From an uncultured Planctomycetales bacterium (GTDB lineage Bacteria; Omnitrophota; Gorgyraeia; Zapsychrales; JAHFFX01), in NCBI GenBank assembly GCA_964571895.1, contig CAZNDW010000003.1:1-36494 (forward strand): a stretch of 36,494 bases of DNA, in the 5' to 3' direction. Under the pieces are notes generated by a model that saw only the letters and a program-made list of their open reading frames with translations, had not been told where the DNA came from and ran no database searches. How positions within the stretch are numbered: position 1 is the first letter of the stretch; every line of letters starts with the position of its first letter. Below, in pieces: positions 7,783 to 36,452 of this stretch. The position numbers and the translations under genes are program-made.

Positions 7783-7926
7783 ATTTATTCTCCTTCGCCC
7801 CCCACCGTTTTGTTTCGCTTTGTCCCCTGAAATCGCTTCGCGATTTCAGGGGATTTAATCCCGGAAAGGCCTTGCCTTTCACGGGACGAAAGCAAAACGA
7901 AACAGTGGGGGCAAAGGATAATAAAT
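7783..7926. repeat. Nested palindromic element of about 144 bp (MITE/REP-like)
   Basis: Imperfect outer arms of about 44 bp (7783-7826 / 7883-7926) enclose two hairpins. One is a perfect 13-bp stem, CCCCTGAAATCGC-TTC-GCGATTTCAGGGG (7824-7852). The other is CCCGGAAAGGC / GCCTTTCACGGG (7860-7885). The termini resemble those of the 14021-14163 element. Confidence 0.8.
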
Positions 7927-13538: not shown

Positions 13539-14000
13539 ATGGGCTCAGCAGAGAAACCCAATATCCCAAGACCATTGATTGGGGAGATTCTGATCAAAAG
13601 GAATATGATCACCCCCAAGCAATTGGCGGAAGCCTTGGAGATTCAAAAGAAACAGGATGGCTTTATCGGAGAGATTTTGGTCAACCTCGGATACCTTGAG
13701 GAGAGGGACATCGTGGTTGCCTTGGTTGTCCAGTGCGGCCTTCCCTACATCGCCGTCAACAAATACGATATCGATCCTGGTGTCCTCAAACTCATCCCCA
13801 CGGAGGTCGCCCGGAATCTGCATGTGATTCCCTTGGATCGCGTGGGGGATGTGCTCAGTGTGGTCATGATCAATCCCTTGAATGAACCGTTAAAAGAACA
13901 ACTGAAGCAAATCACGGGCTGTCGCATCGCCCCCTTCATTGCCACAAAAACAGAGATCGATGAGACGATCGCTCGATTTTATCCCATCACGGCGGGATGA
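13539..14000 (+). CDS. Second standalone T2SSE_N / MshEN-like domain protein
   Basis: 153 aa. LIGEILIKRNMITPKQLAEALEIQ is followed by FIGEILVNLGYLEERDIVVAL and LHVIPLDR. A GGAGAG ribosome-binding site precedes the ATG. Confidence 0.8.
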   Translation: MGSAEKPNIPRPLIGEILIKRNMITPKQLAEALEIQKKQDGFIGEILVNLGYLEERDIVVALVVQCGLPYIAVNKYDIDPGVLKLIPTEVARNLHVIPLDRVGDVLSVVMINPLNEPLKEQLKQITGCRIAPFIATKTEIDETIARFYPITAG

Positions 14001-14020: not shown

Positions 14021-14163
14021 CTTATTCTCCTACGCCCCCACTGCTTTCTTGCGAAAGCAAGAAGCGGGGGCTTCGGAGCAATTATTCTGCATGGAGAATT
14101 CCTGCCTGTCGGCAGACAGGATTGCTGCGAAGCCCCACCTTTAGCGGGGCGTAGCAGAATAAG
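14021..14163. repeat. Nested palindromic element of about 143 bp, same family as 7783-7926
   Basis: The 18-bp outer stem CTTATTCTCCTACGCCCC (14021-14038) / GGGGCGTAGCAGAATAAG (14146-14163) has one mismatch. Inner hairpins: CCCCCACTGCTTTCTTGC-GAAA-GCAAGAAGCGGGGG, GGGGCTTCGGAGCAAT / ATTGCTGCGAAGCCCC and CCTGTC-GGCA-GACAGG. Confidence 0.8.
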
Positions 14164-14179
14164 ACAAGGACGACGGGAT

Positions 14180-15388
14180 ATGATCATCTTTAAATACGTG
14201 GCCAAAGATCCTAATGCCAAAACTGTCACCGGCAAGATGGCCGCTGAGAATCAGATGACTGTGCTCGAGGAGCTCAGAAAGCGCAAGCTCATTGTGATTT
14301 CTATTTCTGAGATTAAAGGAATAACTCTCTTCAAGCCAGGGACAGGCAAGAAGAAGGTTAAACCCGATGACGTTGTGATCTTTGCCAGACAATTGAGCAC
14401 CATGGTGGAGGCCGGGATCCCCATCCTGCAGGCCTTGGATGCCTTGCAGGAGCAGATGACCAGTTCTCATTTTCAGAGTGTCATTGCCTCTATGCGAGAT
14501 GACATTCAGATGGGAAGCAGCCTTTCGGCGGCCTTTGCCAAACACCCAAGGGTCTTTGGAGCGTTTTTTATCAACATGGTGAAGGTCGGGGAAACGGGCG
14601 GAATTTTAAGCGCGATCCTGGATCGGGTTTCAACCTATATGGAAAAGATCCTGAAATTGCGGCGGAAGGTCCAATCTGCCATGGTGTATCCGATGGTTGT
14701 GATTTCCATGGCCGGTATTATTACGGTGGTTCTGCTGGTGAAGGTTGTCCCGACTTTTGCGACCATCTATCAATCTTTTAATAAAGATCTGCCGGCTATG
14801 ACGCAGTTTCTCATAAATATCAGCACGGTTTTGAAACAACAGCTCCTTTGGTATATCGCGGCAATTGTTATCCTCATTTTTATCATGTCCCGTTGGTATT
14901 GCACCCCCAAAGGGGCCTTGACCATTGATCGGATGAAATTGAGGATGCCCATTTTTGGTGAGCTGATTCGAAAAGTCGCCATCAGCCGTTTTTGCCGGAC
15001 TTTGGGCACCTTGATTCAAAGCGGAGTCCCCATCTTAGAATCGTTGGATATCGTCGGCAAGACCTCGGGAAATAAAGTGATCGAGGTCGTCACCGAGAAT
15101 ATTAAAAACAATGTCCGCGAAGGGGAAAGCATCGCCGTGCCGCTGGTTCGAAGCGGGGTTTTCCCTCCTATGGTTACCCGTATGATTGCGATCGGAGAGA
15201 AATCGGGACAGATGGAGAAGATGTTGACAAAGATCGCGGAATTTTATGATGATCAGGTGGACGCGGCTGTGGCCGGCTTGACCAGTATCATTGAACCGGT
15301 CATCATTGGATTTTTGGGGATTGTGGTGGGATTTATTGTGATCGCGTTATTTTTACCGATTCTGAGCATCACTCAGCTTCTCAAATAA
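14180..15388 (+). CDS. pilC: Type IV pilus platform protein PilC (GspF family)
   Basis: About 402 aa starting at MIIFKYVAKDPNAKTVTGKM, a typical PilC N-terminus. It has two GspF repeats and three TM segments. The ORF is also open from ATG 13997, which forms an ATGA overlap with the upstream stop. Those 61 extra codons are mostly the palindromic element. Confidence 0.85.
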   Translation: MIIFKYVAKDPNAKTVTGKMAAENQMTVLEELRKRKLIVISISEIKGITLFKPGTGKKKVKPDDVVIFARQLSTMVEAGIPILQALDALQEQMTSSHFQSVIASMRDDIQMGSSLSAAFAKHPRVFGAFFINMVKVGETGGILSAILDRVSTYMEKILKLRRKVQSAMVYPMVVISMAGIITVVLLVKVVPTFATIYQSFNKDLPAMTQFLINISTVLKQQLLWYIAAIVILIFIMSRWYCTPKGALTIDRMKLRMPIFGELIRKVAISRFCRTLGTLIQSGVPILESLDIVGKTSGNKVIEVVTENIKNNVREGESIAVPLVRSGVFPPMVTRMIAIGEKSGQMEKMLTKIAEFYDDQVDAAVAGLTSIIEPVIIGFLGIVVGFIVIALFLPILSITQLLK

Positions 15389-16304: not shown

Positions 16305-16374
16305 GGCGCCCCCGCCTTTGGCGGGGGGCGCCTCTCAGAGTTGCCCTGAGCAAGCCCCGCCCTGAAGGGCGGGG
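16305..16374. repeat. Pair of GC-rich hairpins
   Basis: GGCGCCCCCGCC-TTT-GGCGGGGGGCGCC (16305-16332) and GCCCCGCCC-TGAA-GGGCGGGGC (16353-16374). No T-run follows either one. Confidence 0.7.
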
Positions 16375-16400
16375 CGAGTCGAAGGGTTGACAATTGAGAA

Positions 16401-16776: not shown

Positions 16777-17181
16777 ATGATGAAGAGAATAAGAAAGAAC
16801 CATCGGGGATTCACCTTGGTCGAGATTATGATCGTTGTGGCGATCATTGCGCTCTTGGCCGCGATTGCGATCCCGAACCTGCTGAGGGCGAAGATATCGG
16901 CCAACGATGCCTCTGCACGGGCGACCTTAAGAGCGTTGTCCACCGCATCCGAAACCTTCGCGACCTCCAACAACGGCAATTATCCTGCGACCATGACCGA
17001 TCTGACGGGCGCGACACCACCGTACATCAACACCGACTACTGTGGCGCGACCGTATCGGGGTATGCGTTCACCTGCACAAACGCGGCGGGAAGCTATACG
17101 TATGTCGCCACGCCGGTGACGGTCGGGACCTCAGGAACCACAACGTACACCATCACGACCGGAGGTGTTTTGACACCATAG
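16777..17181 (+). CDS. pilA: Type IV major pilin
   Basis: 134 aa. The canonical prepilin signal is KNHRG/FTLVEIMIVVAIIALLAAIAIPNLL. The C-terminal half is small and T/G/A-rich. The start is ATG 16777 or 16780. Confidence 0.9.
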   Translation: MMKRIRKNHRGFTLVEIMIVVAIIALLAAIAIPNLLRAKISANDASARATLRALSTASETFATSNNGNYPATMTDLTGATPPYINTDYCGATVSGYAFTCTNAAGSYTYVATPVTVGTSGTTTYTITTGGVLTP

Positions 17182-24981: not shown

Positions 24982-25011
24982 CGGGCAGCACTCATAAAAA
25001 TGGAGGATTAT

Positions 25012-25338
25012 ATGTTTGCGGTTGTGCAAGTGGGTTCTTCCCAGTATAAAATTTCTGAAGGGAATATGATTGAGACACAGCTTTTGGAGGGAAAAAAAGG
25101 AGACCGTATCATTCTGGATAAGGTGCTCTTGTGGGCTGACGGCTCCAGTGTCAGGATCGGTCAGCCCTTTCTTAACGATGTCAAGATTGCCGCTTATGTT
25201 CTAACCCCGCATTTGGGGCCTAAGCTTATCTCCTACAAGTATCGTCGTCGGAAAAACTCGGCCTGGAAGAAGGGACATCGCCAGAAGCTCACCTGCCTTC
25301 GGATCGATAAGATTGAAACCCATTCCCCCCAAGCATAA
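25012..25338 (+). CDS. rplU: 50S ribosomal protein L21
   Basis: MFAVVQVGSSQYKISEG... and YKYRRRKNSAWKKGHRQ. The ATG at 25012 follows GGAGG (25004-25008). Confidence 0.9.
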   Translation: MFAVVQVGSSQYKISEGNMIETQLLEGKKGDRIILDKVLLWADGSSVRIGQPFLNDVKIAAYVLTPHLGPKLISYKYRRRKNSAWKKGHRQKLTCLRIDKIETHSPQA

Positions 25339-25343
25339 AAGGT

Positions 25344-26390
25344 ATGATCTTTGTTGATGAGGCCAGGATTTTTCTTAAAGCGGGTTCCGGCGGGAAAGGC
25401 TGTGAGAGCTTCTACTCCGATAAATTCAGCCGGCACCCCCGGCCCGATGGCGGGGACGGCGGAGGCGGTGGAGATGTCGTCTTTGTTGCGGACAAAGGGA
25501 TCCAGACCTTACTCGATTACCGTTTTAAACAGCATTATCAAGCCCCCAAAGGCGGCAACGCAAGCAGCAAAGGGAAAAAAGGGAAAGTCGGCGAGGATTT
25601 GGTTCTGAGGGTTCCGGTCGGCACCCTGATCAAAGACGAGAAGACGGGATTATCGATTAAGGATTTGGTTTCCGACCAACAGTCGGTGATCGTTGCCAAA
25701 GGCGGCCAGGGGGGCCATGGCAATGCCCACCGCAGGACCGCCCCCCCTGCTTTGCTTCGCAAAGCAAAACGGGGGGGCCAGCCCTGTCCCATGCTGGGAC
25801 AGGGCTGGCCCGGCGAAGAACGGTGCATTCGTCTTCAGTTAAAGCTGATCGCGGATGTGGGGCTCGTGGGCTTTCCCAATGCCGGGAAATCCACCTTAAT
25901 TTCCAGCATCTCTAAAGTCAAATCCAAGATTGCCAGCTATCCTTTTACCACCAAAAGCCCGATTTTAGGAATCGTTGCCGCCAACTCCGAGCAAAATGAG
26001 GGGTCGGGGAATTTTGTGGTGGCGGATTTGCCGGGCTTGATCGAGGGCGCCCACCGGGGACGAGGACTGGGGGACCGCTTTTTGAAACACGCCGAGCGCA
26101 CGAAGATTTTGGTGCACGTTGTGGACATGGCCGGAACCGAAGGACGGGATCCTGGGGAGGATTTTGAAAAGATCAATCTTGAGCTCAAAGAGTACAGTGA
26201 AGATCTCTTTTTTAAACACACTATCGTTGCGGCCAACAAAATGGATTTGCCGGGGGCCTCGGCCAACCTGCGTCGGTTTGAGAGTCGATATCAAGAGGAA
26301 AAGATCTTTCCGGTGTCGGCTTTGAAACGGAAGGGCTTGGACGAGCTCGTCGCATTTATCCGAAAGCTGTTGTCGACCCTCGTCCCTTAA
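25344..26390 (+). CDS. obg: GTPase Obg/CgtA
   Basis: 348 aa. It has a glycine-rich Obg fold (GGDGGGGGDV, GGQGGHGN). G motifs: GFPNAGKST, DLPGLIEGA, NKMD. A palindromic repeat is translated in the linker. Confidence 0.9.
   Translation: MIFVDEARIFLKAGSGGKGCESFYSDKFSRHPRPDGGDGGGGGDVVFVADKGIQTLLDYRFKQHYQAPKGGNASSKGKKGKVGEDLVLRVPVGTLIKDEKTGLSIKDLVSDQQSVIVAKGGQGGHGNAHRRTAPPALLRKAKRGGQPCPMLGQGWPGEERCIRLQLKLIADVGLVGFPNAGKSTLISSISKVKSKIASYPFTTKSPILGIVAANSEQNEGSGNFVVADLPGLIEGAHRGRGLGDRFLKHAERTKILVHVVDMAGTEGRDPGEDFEKINLELKEYSEDLFFKHTIVAANKMDLPGASANLRRFESRYQEEKIFPVSALKRKGLDELVAFIRKLLSTLVP
25740..25808. repeat. Two adjacent palindromes translated in frame inside obg
   Basis: GCCCCCCCTGCTTTGCTTCGCAAAGCAAAACGGGGGGGC (25740-25778) and a perfect 14-bp stem, CCAGCCCTGTCCCA-TGC-TGGGACAGGGCTGG (25778-25808). 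Together they encode APPALLRKAKRGGQPCPMLGQGW. Confidence 0.8.
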
Positions 26391-33586: not shown

Positions 33587-33686
33587 GTGTCATTGCGAGG
33601 CCGTTTTTGGGCCGAAGCAATCTTTTATTAATAGTAAAAAGATTGCTTCGCTCTCCCGACAAAGTCGGGATCGCTCGCAATGACAC
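33587..33686. repeat. Nested palindromic element of about 100 bp
   Basis: A perfect 13-bp outer stem, GTGTCATTGCGAG (33587-33599) / CTCGCAATGACAC (33674-33686). Inside are GAAGCAATCTTTT...AAAAGATTGCTTC and CCCGAC-AAA-GTCGGG. Confidence 0.8.
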
Positions 33687-34307: not shown

Positions 34308-35475
34308 CTTTCAGCACTTCCTGGGCCGCGCGGCGGCTCGCGTGCGGCTCGCCCAAGGTTTCCTTGACTTTCTTTAACTGGGCTCGGATGTTTTTCATTT
34401 TGAACTCGTCTTTGTACAGCGACTTGGCTTCGGAAGCGATCTTTCCGGAGGTGGCCTGAAACTGAACACACTCGGGAACGATCTTCTTTTGGGCGACCAC
34501 GTTGACCAGCCCGATATAAGGGATGCGGATCAGAAGCCTGGCCAAGATCCAAGTGAGAAGAGAGGTTTTATAGACGATGACCATGGGCTTCTGTAGAATG
34601 GCGGCCTCCAGGGTGGCGGTGCCCGAGGCCACCAAACACAGCGTCGCGGCGTTGAGGGCGTTATAGCGCTCTTCGGTTATGATCTTTAAAGGAAAGGGGA
34701 CATTCGTCGCATACCGTTCGATGGTCCGCATCTCGACGGTGGGCGCCTTAATCAGAACAAACTGCAGCCTGCGGTTGTCTTGATAAAGCAAAGAGGCGGC
34801 CTTGAGCATGACTGGAAGAAGCCTCTCGATTTCTCTTTGCCGGGATCCCGGAAGAAGGGCCACAACCGGCCTGCCCGCCATCTTCACGACCTGGCAGGCG
34901 GGCTTCTCGGGAGAAAGACCAATGGACGATAAAAAATCTTCCGGCGGCCGGGTCACTTGAATCTCATCCAAAAGGGGATGGCCCACGAACGTAACATCGA
35001 GGTCCCGGCGACCGTAAAATTCTTTCTCAAAAGGCAGGATCACCAGCATTTTGTCAACGAAATTTTTGATGACTCTGACCCGATTTTCTTTCCAGGCCCA
35101 GACCTGCGGGCTGATGTAGTAAATCACTTTGGTCGGCAGGCCGCGCCTTTTGATTTCCCTGGCCAGACGCAGATTAAAGCCGGGATAGTCGATCAGGACG
35201 ACCCCCGCGGCCCGGGTTTCCTCGATTTTATTTAAGATCATATCAAACATTCGTTGAAACTTCCCCAAGTGTCGGATGACCTCCGCAAATCCCACGACTG
35301 CGAGATCGACGAGATTCTCATACAGAGGAACGCCGCTTTTTTGCATGAGCTCCCCGCCTAAGCCGGAGAACGTGATGGCGCCATCGAGCCGCTTGATCTC
35401 ATCGACCAAAAAGGAGGCGTGGAGATCCCCCGAGGCCTCGCCGGCGACGATGATCAGATGCTCGGATTTTTCCAT
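34276..35475 (-). CDS. lpxB: Lipid-A-disaccharide synthase
   Basis: 399 aa. Motifs: IIVAGEASGDLHAS, YISPQVWAWK, SGTATLEAA. Confidence 0.9.
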   Translation of the reverse strand: MEKSEHLIIVAGEASGDLHASFLVDEIKRLDGAITFSGLGGELMQKSGVPLYENLVDLAVVGFAEVIRHLGKFQRMFDMILNKIEETRAAGVVLIDYPGFNLRLAREIKRRGLPTKVIYYISPQVWAWKENRVRVIKNFVDKMLVILPFEKEFYGRRDLDVTFVGHPLLDEIQVTRPPEDFLSSIGLSPEKPACQVVKMAGRPVVALLPGSRQREIERLLPVMLKAASLLYQDNRRLQFVLIKAPTVEMRTIERYATNVPFPLKIITEERYNALNAATLCLVASGTATLEAAILQKPMVIVYKTSLLTWILARLLIRIPYIGLVNVVAQKKIVPECVQFQATSGKIASEAKSLYKDEFKMKNIRAQLKKVKETLGEPHASRRAAQEVLKVMGKNPAVAN

Positions 35476-36452
35476 AGGGTCTGGGTGATCTTTAAGGCCA
35501 CCTCAAGGGCCATTCGCCCTTCCACTCCCGAGACCAGGGGCTGGGTGTCCTGGAGGATACAGTCGAGGAAAGATTCGAGCTCTTTCTTGAGGGGTTCTTC
35601 TTTTTCGATGGGAAGGCTGGTTTTGGAAATGGAGGCGCCGTTTTTTTTATAGAGGAAGGCCTCCTGCTTGACGTAATCCAGCGAGATATAGGTGTCTTTG
35701 AGGAAAATGCGGATCTTGCGCATCACTTCATCCGACACCCGGCTCGCCGTCAGGTTGCAGACGCAGCCGTTCTGGAAGGTGAGCCGCGCATTGGCGATAT
35801 CTTCCAAGTCCGTCAAGACGTTAACCCCGACGGCCTGGATGTCTTGGATAGGGGAATCCACCAATCCCAGAACGATGTCGATGTCGTGGATCATGAGGTC
35901 GGTCACCACGTTTAAGTCCAGAGAGCGGTTGGGAAAATGATTCAGGCGGTGGCATTCCACAAACAAGGGATTGAGGGCCCGCCCCCGCTGCTTCGCTTTG
36001 CGAAGCAAAGCGACGGGGGCCAGAGAGCGGATCGCTTGGAAAGCCGCATTGAAGCGCTCCACATGCCCCACCTGGAGCTTGAGATTTTTCTTTTGCGCGA
36101 GCCCGATTAAGATGTCGGCTTCTTTCAGGGTCAAGGTGATGGGCTTTTCGATGAAGGTGTGGACGCCCTGCTTAAGAAAAAATCGGGCGATCTCGAAGTG
36201 GGAAGAAGTCGGCGTGCAGATATTGACCGCTTCAATCTCACTGGTTAGCTGACGATAATCTTCCAGGACCTTGATGCGGTAAGGTTGGGAGGCTTTCTCA
36301 GCGGCCGCTCGATTGATGTCGCAGACGGTCACCACCTGGGCTTTGGCGGCCAACTGGCCGCAGTAAACCTTCAGGTGCTTGGAGCCCAGATGGCCGACAC
36401 CCACGATGGCGAGGTTGACTCTTCGAGGGCGCTTAGGGCTGATTTTGCGCAT
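35454..36452 (-). CDS. Gfo/Idh/MocA-family NAD-dependent oxidoreductase
   Basis: It has a Rossmann motif (NLAIVGVGHLGSKH) and EKP (FIEKPITL). The ATG at 36452 is taken as the start. The ORF stays open to a TTG at 36479. It overlaps the lpxB start by 22 nt. Confidence 0.8.
   Translation of the reverse strand: MRKISPKRPRRVNLAIVGVGHLGSKHLKVYCGQLAAKAQVVTVCDINRAAAEKASQPYRIKVLEDYRQLTSEIEAVNICTPTSSHFEIARFFLKQGVHTFIEKPITLTLKEADILIGLAQKKNLKLQVGHVERFNAAFQAIRSLAPVALLRKAKQRGRALNPLFVECHRLNHFPNRSLDLNVVTDLMIHDIDIVLGLVDSPIQDIQAVGVNVLTDLEDIANARLTFQNGCVCNLTASRVSDEVMRKIRIFLKDTYISLDYVKQEAFLYKKNGASISKTSLPIEKEEPLKKELESFLDCILQDTQPLVSGVEGRMALEVALKITQTLWKNPSI
35979..36020. repeat. GC-clamped palindrome translated in frame inside the oxidoreductase gene
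   Basis: On the coding (-) strand it reads GCCCCCGTCGCTTTGCTTCGCAAAGCGAAGCAGCGGGGGC. It shares a 17-nt core, GCTTTGCTTCGCAAAGC, with the obg copy. It encodes APVALLRKAKQRG. Confidence 0.8.

Follow-up and report, generated by a model that had tools for sequence, protein, structure and literature searches.

In-frame insertion of a dispersed palindromic repeat into the obg gene of an uncultured Omnitrophota bacterium

Two abutting palindromes lie within the gene for the GTPase Obg/CgtA in a 36,494-nucleotide stretch of DNA (hereafter, the window) from an uncultured bacterium that is deposited as a member of the Planctomycetales and placed in the Omnitrophota by its GTDB lineage (GenBank assembly GCA_964571895.1, contig CAZNDW010000003.1, positions 1 to 36,494). 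How did such a segment come to lie inside a conserved protein-coding gene, and what becomes of it when the gene is expressed? The comparisons presented here show that the segment is a frame-preserving insertion of a dispersed palindromic repeat, designated F1, whose hairpin is conserved and covarying across the family and which recurs in frame in many conserved genes. It is likely that the 54 extra nucleotides (nt) of obg represent an insertion of selfish or neutral, GC-clamped repeat DNA of the repetitive extragenic palindromic (REP) or miniature inverted-repeat transposable element (MITE) type, which is most likely translated as a loop.

The obg gene (25344..26390, plus strand) is an intact open reading frame (ORF) for 348 amino acids, whose homologs carry PF01018 and PF01926 and which matches the structure PDB 1LNZ at E = 1.5e-95. 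The palindromes occupy positions 25741-25811, between the glycine-rich Obg fold and the G domain, and the obg frame reads through them as APPALLRKAKRGGQPCPMLGQGW; a first-pass annotation made from the letters alone had described them faithfully as two palindromes at 25740-25808, placed in the linker and read in frame. Downstream of the insert the frame stays open, with the G1 (GFPNAGKST), G3 (DLPG) and G4 (NKMD) motifs all kept, and the Obg fold is also present. Hairpin 1 (25741..25777, plus strand) has the structure C7-T-GCTTTGC-TTC-GCAAAGC-AAAAC-G7, is translated as (A)PPALLRKAKRGG, and is a member of the F1 family according to R1, a covariance model built from 70 F1 members (alignment A4), which scores it at 52.4 bits (E = 9e-6). 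Hairpin 2 (25775..25811, plus strand) is a perfect stem, GGGCCAGCCCTGTCCCA-TGC-TGGGACAGGGCTGGCCC, with the loop TGC; its stem had been counted as 14 bp and in fact extends to 17 bp with the flanking GGG/CCC. The GGG is common to both hairpins, and the right arm of hairpin 2 coincides with the codons for LGQGWP. The RNA fold of positions 25725-25825 reaches -68.2 kcal/mol, against -42.3 +/- 3.6 kcal/mol in shuffled sequences (z = -7.1), none of 200 shuffles being as stable. The palindromic stretch in obg is no chance feature.

The comparison set for Obg consisted of 27 Omnitrophota relatives that are 61-76% identical to the window protein (the best 71-76%; alignment A1). In all 27 the linker is GN-x10-PGEER, of invariant length, and in the window protein it is GN-x28-PGEER, such that the latter is longer than every aligned relative by exactly 18 residues (54 nt). 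The same gap is seen in a DNA alignment with the two nearest relatives (A3). Thus, the question of whether relatives share the long linker, which had been raised as a check on the initial interpretation, is answered: all of them lack the segment. In the Obg proteins of Bacillus subtilis and Escherichia coli the linker from GN to PG measures 18 residues, and the inserted part is dissimilar to theirs; the lengths given in the first-pass annotation (about 16 residues in these species and 26 here) were therefore roughly right, the measured values being 18 and 28. The most economical parse, based on A1, A3 and a direct reading of the sequence for the boundaries, is a net insertion of 54 nt (18 codons) at 25741..25794 on the plus strand, which comprises the 37 nt of hairpin 1, a 14-nt stretch whose reverse complement makes up the codons that come next, and the TGC loop. 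When these positions are deleted in silico, the product is RTVGQGWPGEER, a linker of 10 residues as in all the relatives. A second register of the 54-nt insert, 25749-25802, is equally valid.

The obg locus is 99.96-100% identical in ENA ERZ27245685, JGI 3300025157, JGI 3300022563 and Logan SRR5747861. Different pipelines were used for these four assemblies, which draw on two or more JGI samples, and their agreement indicates that the insert is not the product of a single assembler. A look-up aimed at the DNA upstream of the window yielded just the JGI contig, which itself ends close to the window start. An AlphaFold prediction made with alignment A1 gave a mean predicted local distance difference test (pLDDT) score of 79.5 for the window Obg; within the insert, the score falls below 50 at residues 137-149, and blocks over residues 131-150 average 53 and 44, compared with 82-83 in the flanking blocks. 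Low confidence of this kind would be expected of a flexible surface loop located at the interdomain hinge. The insert most likely adds a floppy or disordered loop of 18 residues to Obg.

The surroundings of the gene also merit description. The closest homologs of Obg, and of an oxidoreductase encoded farther along the window, are from Candidatus Omnitrophota. The gene obg directly follows rplU and is followed by proB. A common gene order is rplU-rpmA-obg, from which this locus departs in having no rpmA (L27) between rplU (L21) and obg (window 25000-25344), as do the related loci L246 and L247. Several other Omnitrophota Obg proteins (P0016, P0009, P0012, P0027 and P0061) have in-frame inserts of 10-40 residues in the G domain after ILGIV. 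In P0016 the insert (L248:~1100-1200) is an in-frame composite palindrome of about 100 nt from a family unrelated to F1, which indicates that the presence of palindromic DNA in obg is recurrent within the Omnitrophota.

The F1 family has the consensus C4-7, NN, CGCTTTGC-TTC-GCAAAGCG, AAGCA, NN, G4-7, with a total length of 36-41 nt. It is composed of a C4-7/G4-7 clamp, two to three covarying base pairs and a near-invariant core, GCTTYGCTTYGCRAAGC-AAAGC, which together form a hairpin with a stem of about 15 bp, a 5-nt bulge and a 3-nt loop, and thus corresponds to the 20-40-nt imperfect palindrome by which REPs are defined. In the core, the pentamer GCTTY occurs twice in tandem and is followed by the inverse of this tandem; consequently, two equivalent registers are open to the 8-bp inner stem, and the 5-nt bulge may fall on one arm or the other. 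Conservation of the hairpin is evident from the NN positions, which are completely paired in 79 of 120 copies, with 15 distinct paired types; 500 shuffles gave 32.6 such copies on average and never more than 41. In A4, 48 cells change on both sides of the stem (21.9 when shuffled) and the covariation score is 0.097 (0.043 when shuffled); neither value was reached in any of 500 shuffles, and every slid control was lower. On direct reading, the core is free of stop codons in all six frames. At the ends of 246 copies the tetranucleotide tags of REPs are lacking or rare (GTAG 0, CTAC 1, CGTC 15, GACG 11; 0 to 6%). A function as a rho-independent terminator was considered and rejected, a T-run following just 8 of the 246 copies (3%) on either strand. 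No family in Rfam 15 was matched at its gathering score, the sub-threshold matches being to generic hairpins (microRNA precursors) alone, and neither form of the 17-nt core of hairpin 1 was found in the literature searched by sequence. An F1 subfamily, CCCCCTCCGCTTCGCTTCGCGAAGCACCCTGAGGGCCGGGG, lies inside a longer repeat; the subfamily is translated as PNNSMEPPPLRFAKHPEGRGSSTDPG and is present in up to three copies per contig (L015, L092, L120, L123 and others).

Further copies of F1 are found close to obg. Allowing up to three mismatches, the 17-nt core has six matches in the window, compared with 0.19 expected, and R1 detects two strong copies and one weak one. The core recurs at 35995-36011, within a gene for an oxidoreductase of the Gfo/Idh/MocA family (35454..36452, minus strand; PF01408, PF22725) that adjoins lpxB, which bears out the initial claim of an in-frame recurrence in an unrelated gene. 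This second copy (35982-36019, minus strand) scores 64.6 bits, and it is contained in a clean in-frame insertion of 42 nt (14 codons), PVALLRKAKQRGRA (35976..36017, minus strand; alignments A2 and A5), that has no counterpart in any of the 21 aligned oxidoreductase homologs. The copies in obg and in the oxidoreductase gene have the same orientation and are read in the same frame, as AP(P/V)ALLRKAK. At the flanks of copy 2, direct reading reveals no more than a direct repeat, GGCC(C), which is ambiguous. Three of the oxidoreductase homologs in A2 (P0129, P0133 and P0134) share an extra segment, LSADKAGG or LPAGKAGG, at a different site, which may be another in-frame repeat insertion. The intergenic copy at 14035-14070, which had been described as a close variant at approximately 14036-14070, is real, but its match to R1 is weak and divergent (25 bits, E about 0.06). 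It belongs to a composite element, palindromic and about 142 nt long (14022..14163, plus strand; fold -83 kcal/mol, z = -8.0), which fills nearly the whole gap between a gene ending at 14000 and a type II secretion system (T2SS) F gene starting at 14181, has the inverted ends TTATTCTCCTACGCCCC and GGGGCGTAGCAGAATAA, and holds, in addition to the F1-like hairpin, an F2-like palindrome, CCTGCCTGTCGGCAGACAGG (14101-14120; for F2, see below). A fourth copy lies on the same contig about 9 kb past the end of the window, 3 nt after the stop codon of frr (L004:5117-5174 in the collection of related loci), so that four F1 copies are present within approximately 46 kb of this genome.

Pattern scans identified at least 120 contigs with F1 in the JGI metagenomes and at least 118 in the GTDB species genomes; the expectation that the motif would have further copies was thus borne out, both in this genome and in hundreds of contigs beyond it. 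Among the matches listed, the genomes carrying F1 are mainly metagenome-assembled genomes (MAGs) of Omnitrophota and Planctomycetota (Planctomycetia, Pirellulales, Phycisphaerae and Ca. Scalindua), as labeled in the database records; the other labels in the same list are NPL-UPA2, Desantisbacteria, Ratteibacteria, Elusimicrobia and Thermodesulfovibrionia/Nitrospirales, together with single MAGs of Acidobacteriota, Pseudomonadota and Clostridia. The carriers include megabase contigs and closed chromosomes, among the latter CP070837.1 from an Omnitrophota genome and OY970359.1 from a Phycisphaerales genome, and some MAGs have six to eight F1 loci among the matches listed. Carriage of F1 by phages was also considered and set aside, since neither hairpin of obg has a match in a collection of 2.9 million viral contigs.

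Most copies of F1 appear to be intergenic, approximately 80-90% not being deep inside ORFs, and approximately 10-20% lie in long open frames: at least 60 open codons flank the repeat on both sides in 40 of 209 testable copies, and at least 100 in 20 of 209, these counts being without a formal null. The coding density of bacterial genomes is usually well above this genic share, and such a deficit is the pattern that would be expected if selection removes most genic insertions and spares those that preserve the frame in tolerant loops. Matches to Pfam or PDB place F1 copies inside or between the domains of LarC, asparaginyl-tRNA synthetase (AsnRS, asnS), PriA, phosphoenolpyruvate (PEP) carboxylase (ppc), a protein of the aminoimidazole ribonucleotide (AIR) synthase family, class I/II and class V aminotransferases, an aconitase-family protein, a sulfatase and a thiamine pyrophosphate (TPP) enzyme; radical-SAM/DUF2344 proteins carry F1 in two genomes, in one of them with two copies. 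In total, at least 12 host families beyond obg and the oxidoreductase are supported in this way. LarC, the sole host among these that was compared residue by residue with an insert-less homolog, has 12 residues extra relative to PDB 12bi. In coding DNA, F1 is found in all six frames and both orientations. The intragenic copies fall into all three length classes modulo 3, with the extra bases that restore the frame differing from case to case, which implies that there is no target-site duplication of fixed length. Several of the intergenic copies lie immediately ahead of a ribosome-binding site or closely follow a stop codon.

F1 is frequently associated with other palindromes. A second family, F2 (consensus CCTGCCTGCC/GGCAGGCAGG), has 43 occurrences in the loci, compared with 8 in shuffled sequence. 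F1 is found at the center of F2 in L160, inside the PEP carboxylase gene, and in L219; conversely, in the copy that follows frr in the present genome (L004:5117-5174), an F2 palindrome, CCTGTCTGCCGACAGGCAGG, is nested in the tip of the F1 hairpin. In L010, L036 and L125, F1 is located in the tip of an F1-like hairpin, and an un-nested paralog of the longer repeat is available for comparison (A6). In 13% of F1 copies the flanks are more complementary to each other than control flanks at the 99th percentile, since these copies are seated at the tips of larger palindromes. Inverted flank copies are not a general signature of insertion, as approximately 85% of copies have no palindromic extension past the clamp. 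These nested arrangements suggest that hairpin tips are preferred targets of F1.

The second hairpin of obg has to be explained separately, and the choice between a local inverted duplication and a divergent unit of F2 is about evenly balanced. A duplication would have copied the linker codons of obg itself in inverted form, at or soon after the insertion of hairpin 1, by template switching of the replication machinery at the quasi-palindrome, and we regard this course of events as plausible, at slightly less than an even chance. It accounts exactly for the 54 nt, as 37 nt of hairpin 1, 14 nt of inverted copy and 3 nt of loop, the removal of which restores the linker RTVGQGWPGEER at the length found in 27 of 27 relatives, and RTV and GQG are present in the relatives P0010 and P0012; a divergent F2 unit, at 37 + 31 = 68 nt, would require an overlap or loss of 14 nt. 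The perfect stem of hairpin 2 suggests a recent origin. Searches of the window, of the related loci (682 kb at first, later about 1.5 Mb) and of the viral contigs yielded no identical or near-identical copy of it, the search for CCAGCCCTGTCCCA...TGGGACAGGGCTGG not having extended to the metagenome and genome collections, and hairpin 2 as a dispersed repeat, which is how it had been treated at first, is unsupported by these exact and near-exact searches. On the other hand, the 6-bp inner stem of hairpin 2, CCTGTC/GACAGG, also occurs in both F2-type palindromes of the same genome (14101-14120 and L004:5138-5157), and at other loci (L160, L219 and L004) F1 units adjoin F2 units or are nested with them, which points to a mosaic insert of two units. 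Microhomology, between the Pro-Pro codons and the C clamp and between the Gly-Gln-Gly codons and GACAGG, could reconcile the two readings.

Three other explanations differ more fundamentally from the insertion of a repeat. The hairpins might constitute a functional RNA element in the obg mRNA, which acts in pausing or attenuation, in processing by RNase III or another enzyme, or in binding a protein that tunes the level of Obg, with its translation being incidental. The very stable fold (-68 kcal/mol, z = -7.1), the covariation of the stem across the family and the location of several intergenic copies right before ribosome-binding sites or after stop codons are all consistent with this idea; however, F1 occurs in both orientations and six frames, in unrelated genes and in intergenic regions with no consistent neighbor, is absent from the obg genes of all aligned relatives, belongs to no Rfam family and is followed by a T-run in 3% of copies, and a regulatory role is accordingly improbable. 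It is far less probable still that the segment is removed as an intervening sequence at the RNA level or skipped by translational bypass, such that ALLRKAKRGGQPCPMLGQ never appears in Obg. In gene 60 of phage T4 a hairpin assists such a bypass, and two strong hairpins stand side by side in obg; yet an insert that is in frame and free of stops makes skipping unnecessary, the inserts of obg, the oxidoreductase and LarC are all multiples of three, as would be expected only if they are translated, and neither intron or intein features nor any Rfam match is present. Least probable of all, by a small step, is that the segment is an artefact of assembly or sequencing, or an ancestral long linker that the relatives have lost: palindromes can arise as chimeric artefacts and the 18-residue linker of B. 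subtilis and E. coli does exceed that of the relatives, but the segment is identical in the four assemblies, its frame is kept, it is unlike the canonical linker, and hairpin 1 is a dispersed repeat.

The preferred explanation, insertion of repeat DNA, may be pictured as follows. An F1 unit would have come to rest in the hinge that links the Obg fold to the G domain. The insertion would have survived because of this position, because its net length is a multiple of three, because the element is free of stops in six frames and because, at this site, it is most likely read as a small and disordered surface loop of basic character, ALLRKAKRGGQPCPMLGQ. Hairpin 2 may be a by-product or a companion of this event, being either a 14-17 nt inverted duplication of the adjacent codons, which template switching at the new hairpin could, for instance, have produced, or a divergent F2 unit joined at microhomology. 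F1 itself may spread via a single-stranded hairpin intermediate with the aid of an enzyme supplied in trans. We infer that the insert is selectively near-neutral.

Several points weigh against this explanation. The junctions of the insert are approximate, and a search for empty sites among the collected loci yielded just nested and un-nested forms of longer repeats and no empty gene site. Hairpin 2 is not accounted for by the F1 family alone. Translation of the insert is a deduction from its frame. REP families are usually lineage-specific, and a near-identical core in MAGs of several labeled phyla is unusual for such a family. A target-site duplication of fixed length is ruled out by the spread of the copies over all classes modulo 3. 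Furthermore, no transposase could be linked to F1 among the neighboring genes in approximately 1.5 Mb of loci (8-kb neighborhoods). When 3,182 neighboring ORFs were clustered, just large paralogous families were obtained (ABC ATPases, response regulators, tetratricopeptide repeat (TPR) proteins and GspE), at no fixed distance from F1, and no transposase was enriched among them. A search for Y1 transposases with probe sequences composed for the purpose, which resemble IS200/IS605 and REP-associated tyrosine transposases (RAYTs), identified one gene in these loci (L190:1603-2235, minus strand; PF01797, E = 3e-12), in the Omnitrophota MAG JACPSQ01, and this RAYT-like gene is bracketed by palindromes of its own, GTGACAGTCAC/GGTGACAGTCACC, which are unlike F1. 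L190 thus represents a separate system of the REP type, in a genome that also has at least eight F1 loci.

Other features of the window are less closely related to the insert. Further strong intergenic hairpins are located at 7823-7853, 16305-16375 and 33613-33650, with scores for the F1 model below significance; they include the form TCCCCTGAAATCGC-TTC-GCGATTTCAGGGGA, two hairpins composed of GC only and an AT-rich one with a 14-bp stem between convergent genes, and they may be terminators or repeats of other types. The plus strand at 16403-16507 matches the c-di-GMP-I riboswitch family RF01051 with 54.6 bits, which is above its gathering score; this riboswitch precedes a pilin-like gene (16777-17181) whose product has an N_methyl domain, in a cluster for type IV pilus or type II secretion.

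The insert in obg represents a well-documented case, beyond Rickettsia and Proteobacteria, of palindromic repeat DNA in essential proteins (Obg, AsnRS, PriA and PEP carboxylase), and it illustrates one way in which conserved proteins come to acquire disordered loops. For annotation, it implies that such inserts are neither errors nor signs of pseudogenes, and that they can mislead domain calls and alignments in MAGs of Omnitrophota and Planctomycetota. A bolder proposal, which we consider unlikely though worth stating, is that F1, F2 and the GCTTTCTTGC palindrome together make up an undescribed kind of miniature mobile hairpin, near-unchanged across phyla (Omnitrophota, Planctomycetota, Elusimicrobiota, Nitrospirota, Desantisbacteria and NPL-UPA2), stop-free in six frames and without REP tags, which prefers hairpin tips and coding DNA and is moved by an enzyme specific for single-stranded hairpins. 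If so, these hairpins would be a general and ongoing source of new loops in the core proteins of these lineages.

The in-frame decoration of proteins by palindromic DNA is itself an already known phenomenon, as shown by two precedents. Rickettsia palindromic elements (RPEs) have been documented within genes (Ogata et al., 2000, 2002, via PMC10969869), and the first-pass annotation had likened the obg segment to them, while noting that host and sequence family appear different. As far as the RPEs are described in that source, the likeness holds in that palindromes are tolerated in frame in unrelated housekeeping genes, apparently as surface additions, and occur in both genic and intergenic positions. 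Membership of the RPE family is rejected because size, sequence and host all differ: judged by these descriptions, RPE-1 is approximately 100-150 bp long with a conserved peptide frame for each family, whereas F1 is 36-41 nt long and is read in six frames, and the hosts of F1 are free-living or episymbiotic Omnitrophota and Planctomycetota rather than Rickettsia; no kinship in sequence is expected. The closer precedent is that of the intragenic REPs, palindromes of 20-40 bp that have been documented inside ORFs of several phyla, including Opitutus terrae and Planctomycetes in the PVC superphylum, and of which a minority lie in frame in known genes, where they add approximately 12-30 residues, often as dimers or mosaics (Di Nocera et al., 2013, PMC3733652). 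Like these, F1 is a short, imperfect palindrome that recurs within genomes, and it appears to be mostly intergenic and is in frame in a minority of copies. Unlike them, it has no GTAG/CGTC tag, no F1-flanked RAYT was found in the 8-kb neighborhoods, its core is near-identical across MAGs labeled as several phyla, its stem forms in two registers, and it is often seated at the tips of other palindromes. F1 is, then, a new REP/RPE-like family, distinct from the RPEs in size, host and the lack of a fixed frame, and from the REP superfamily in the lack of its tag.

The comparison can be extended to larger assemblies and to mobile elements. Bacterial interspersed mosaic elements (BIMEs) and REPINs, in which REPs are paired or form mosaics and are mobilized by RAYTs (Y1 HUH transposases), resemble F1 in the mixing of units, F1 with F2 and F1 with the GCTTTCTTGC palindrome; however, the F1 units are nested in tips instead of alternating at regular spacing, and no cognate RAYT was found in the 8-kb neighborhoods. 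Irregular hairpins with an asymmetric bulge are the kind that HUH enzymes recognize on single strands, and F1 has such a bulge. A classification of F1 as a MITE was rejected, since the whole unit is one hairpin, with no fixed duplication and no parent insertion sequence (IS) found. IS1397 and ISKpn1, full ISs of more than 1 kb with a transposase, target the loops of palindromic units, and the insertion of F1 into F1, F1 into F2 and F2 into F1 likewise takes place at the center or loop of a palindrome, with the difference that the inserted unit here is itself a palindrome of 20-40 nt. Thus, what stands out in F1 among these systems is its near-identical core in MAGs labeled as several phyla, its two-register hairpin and its nesting at hairpin tips; the first and last of these go beyond current models of REPs and RAYTs and provide a handle for finding the mobilizing activity.

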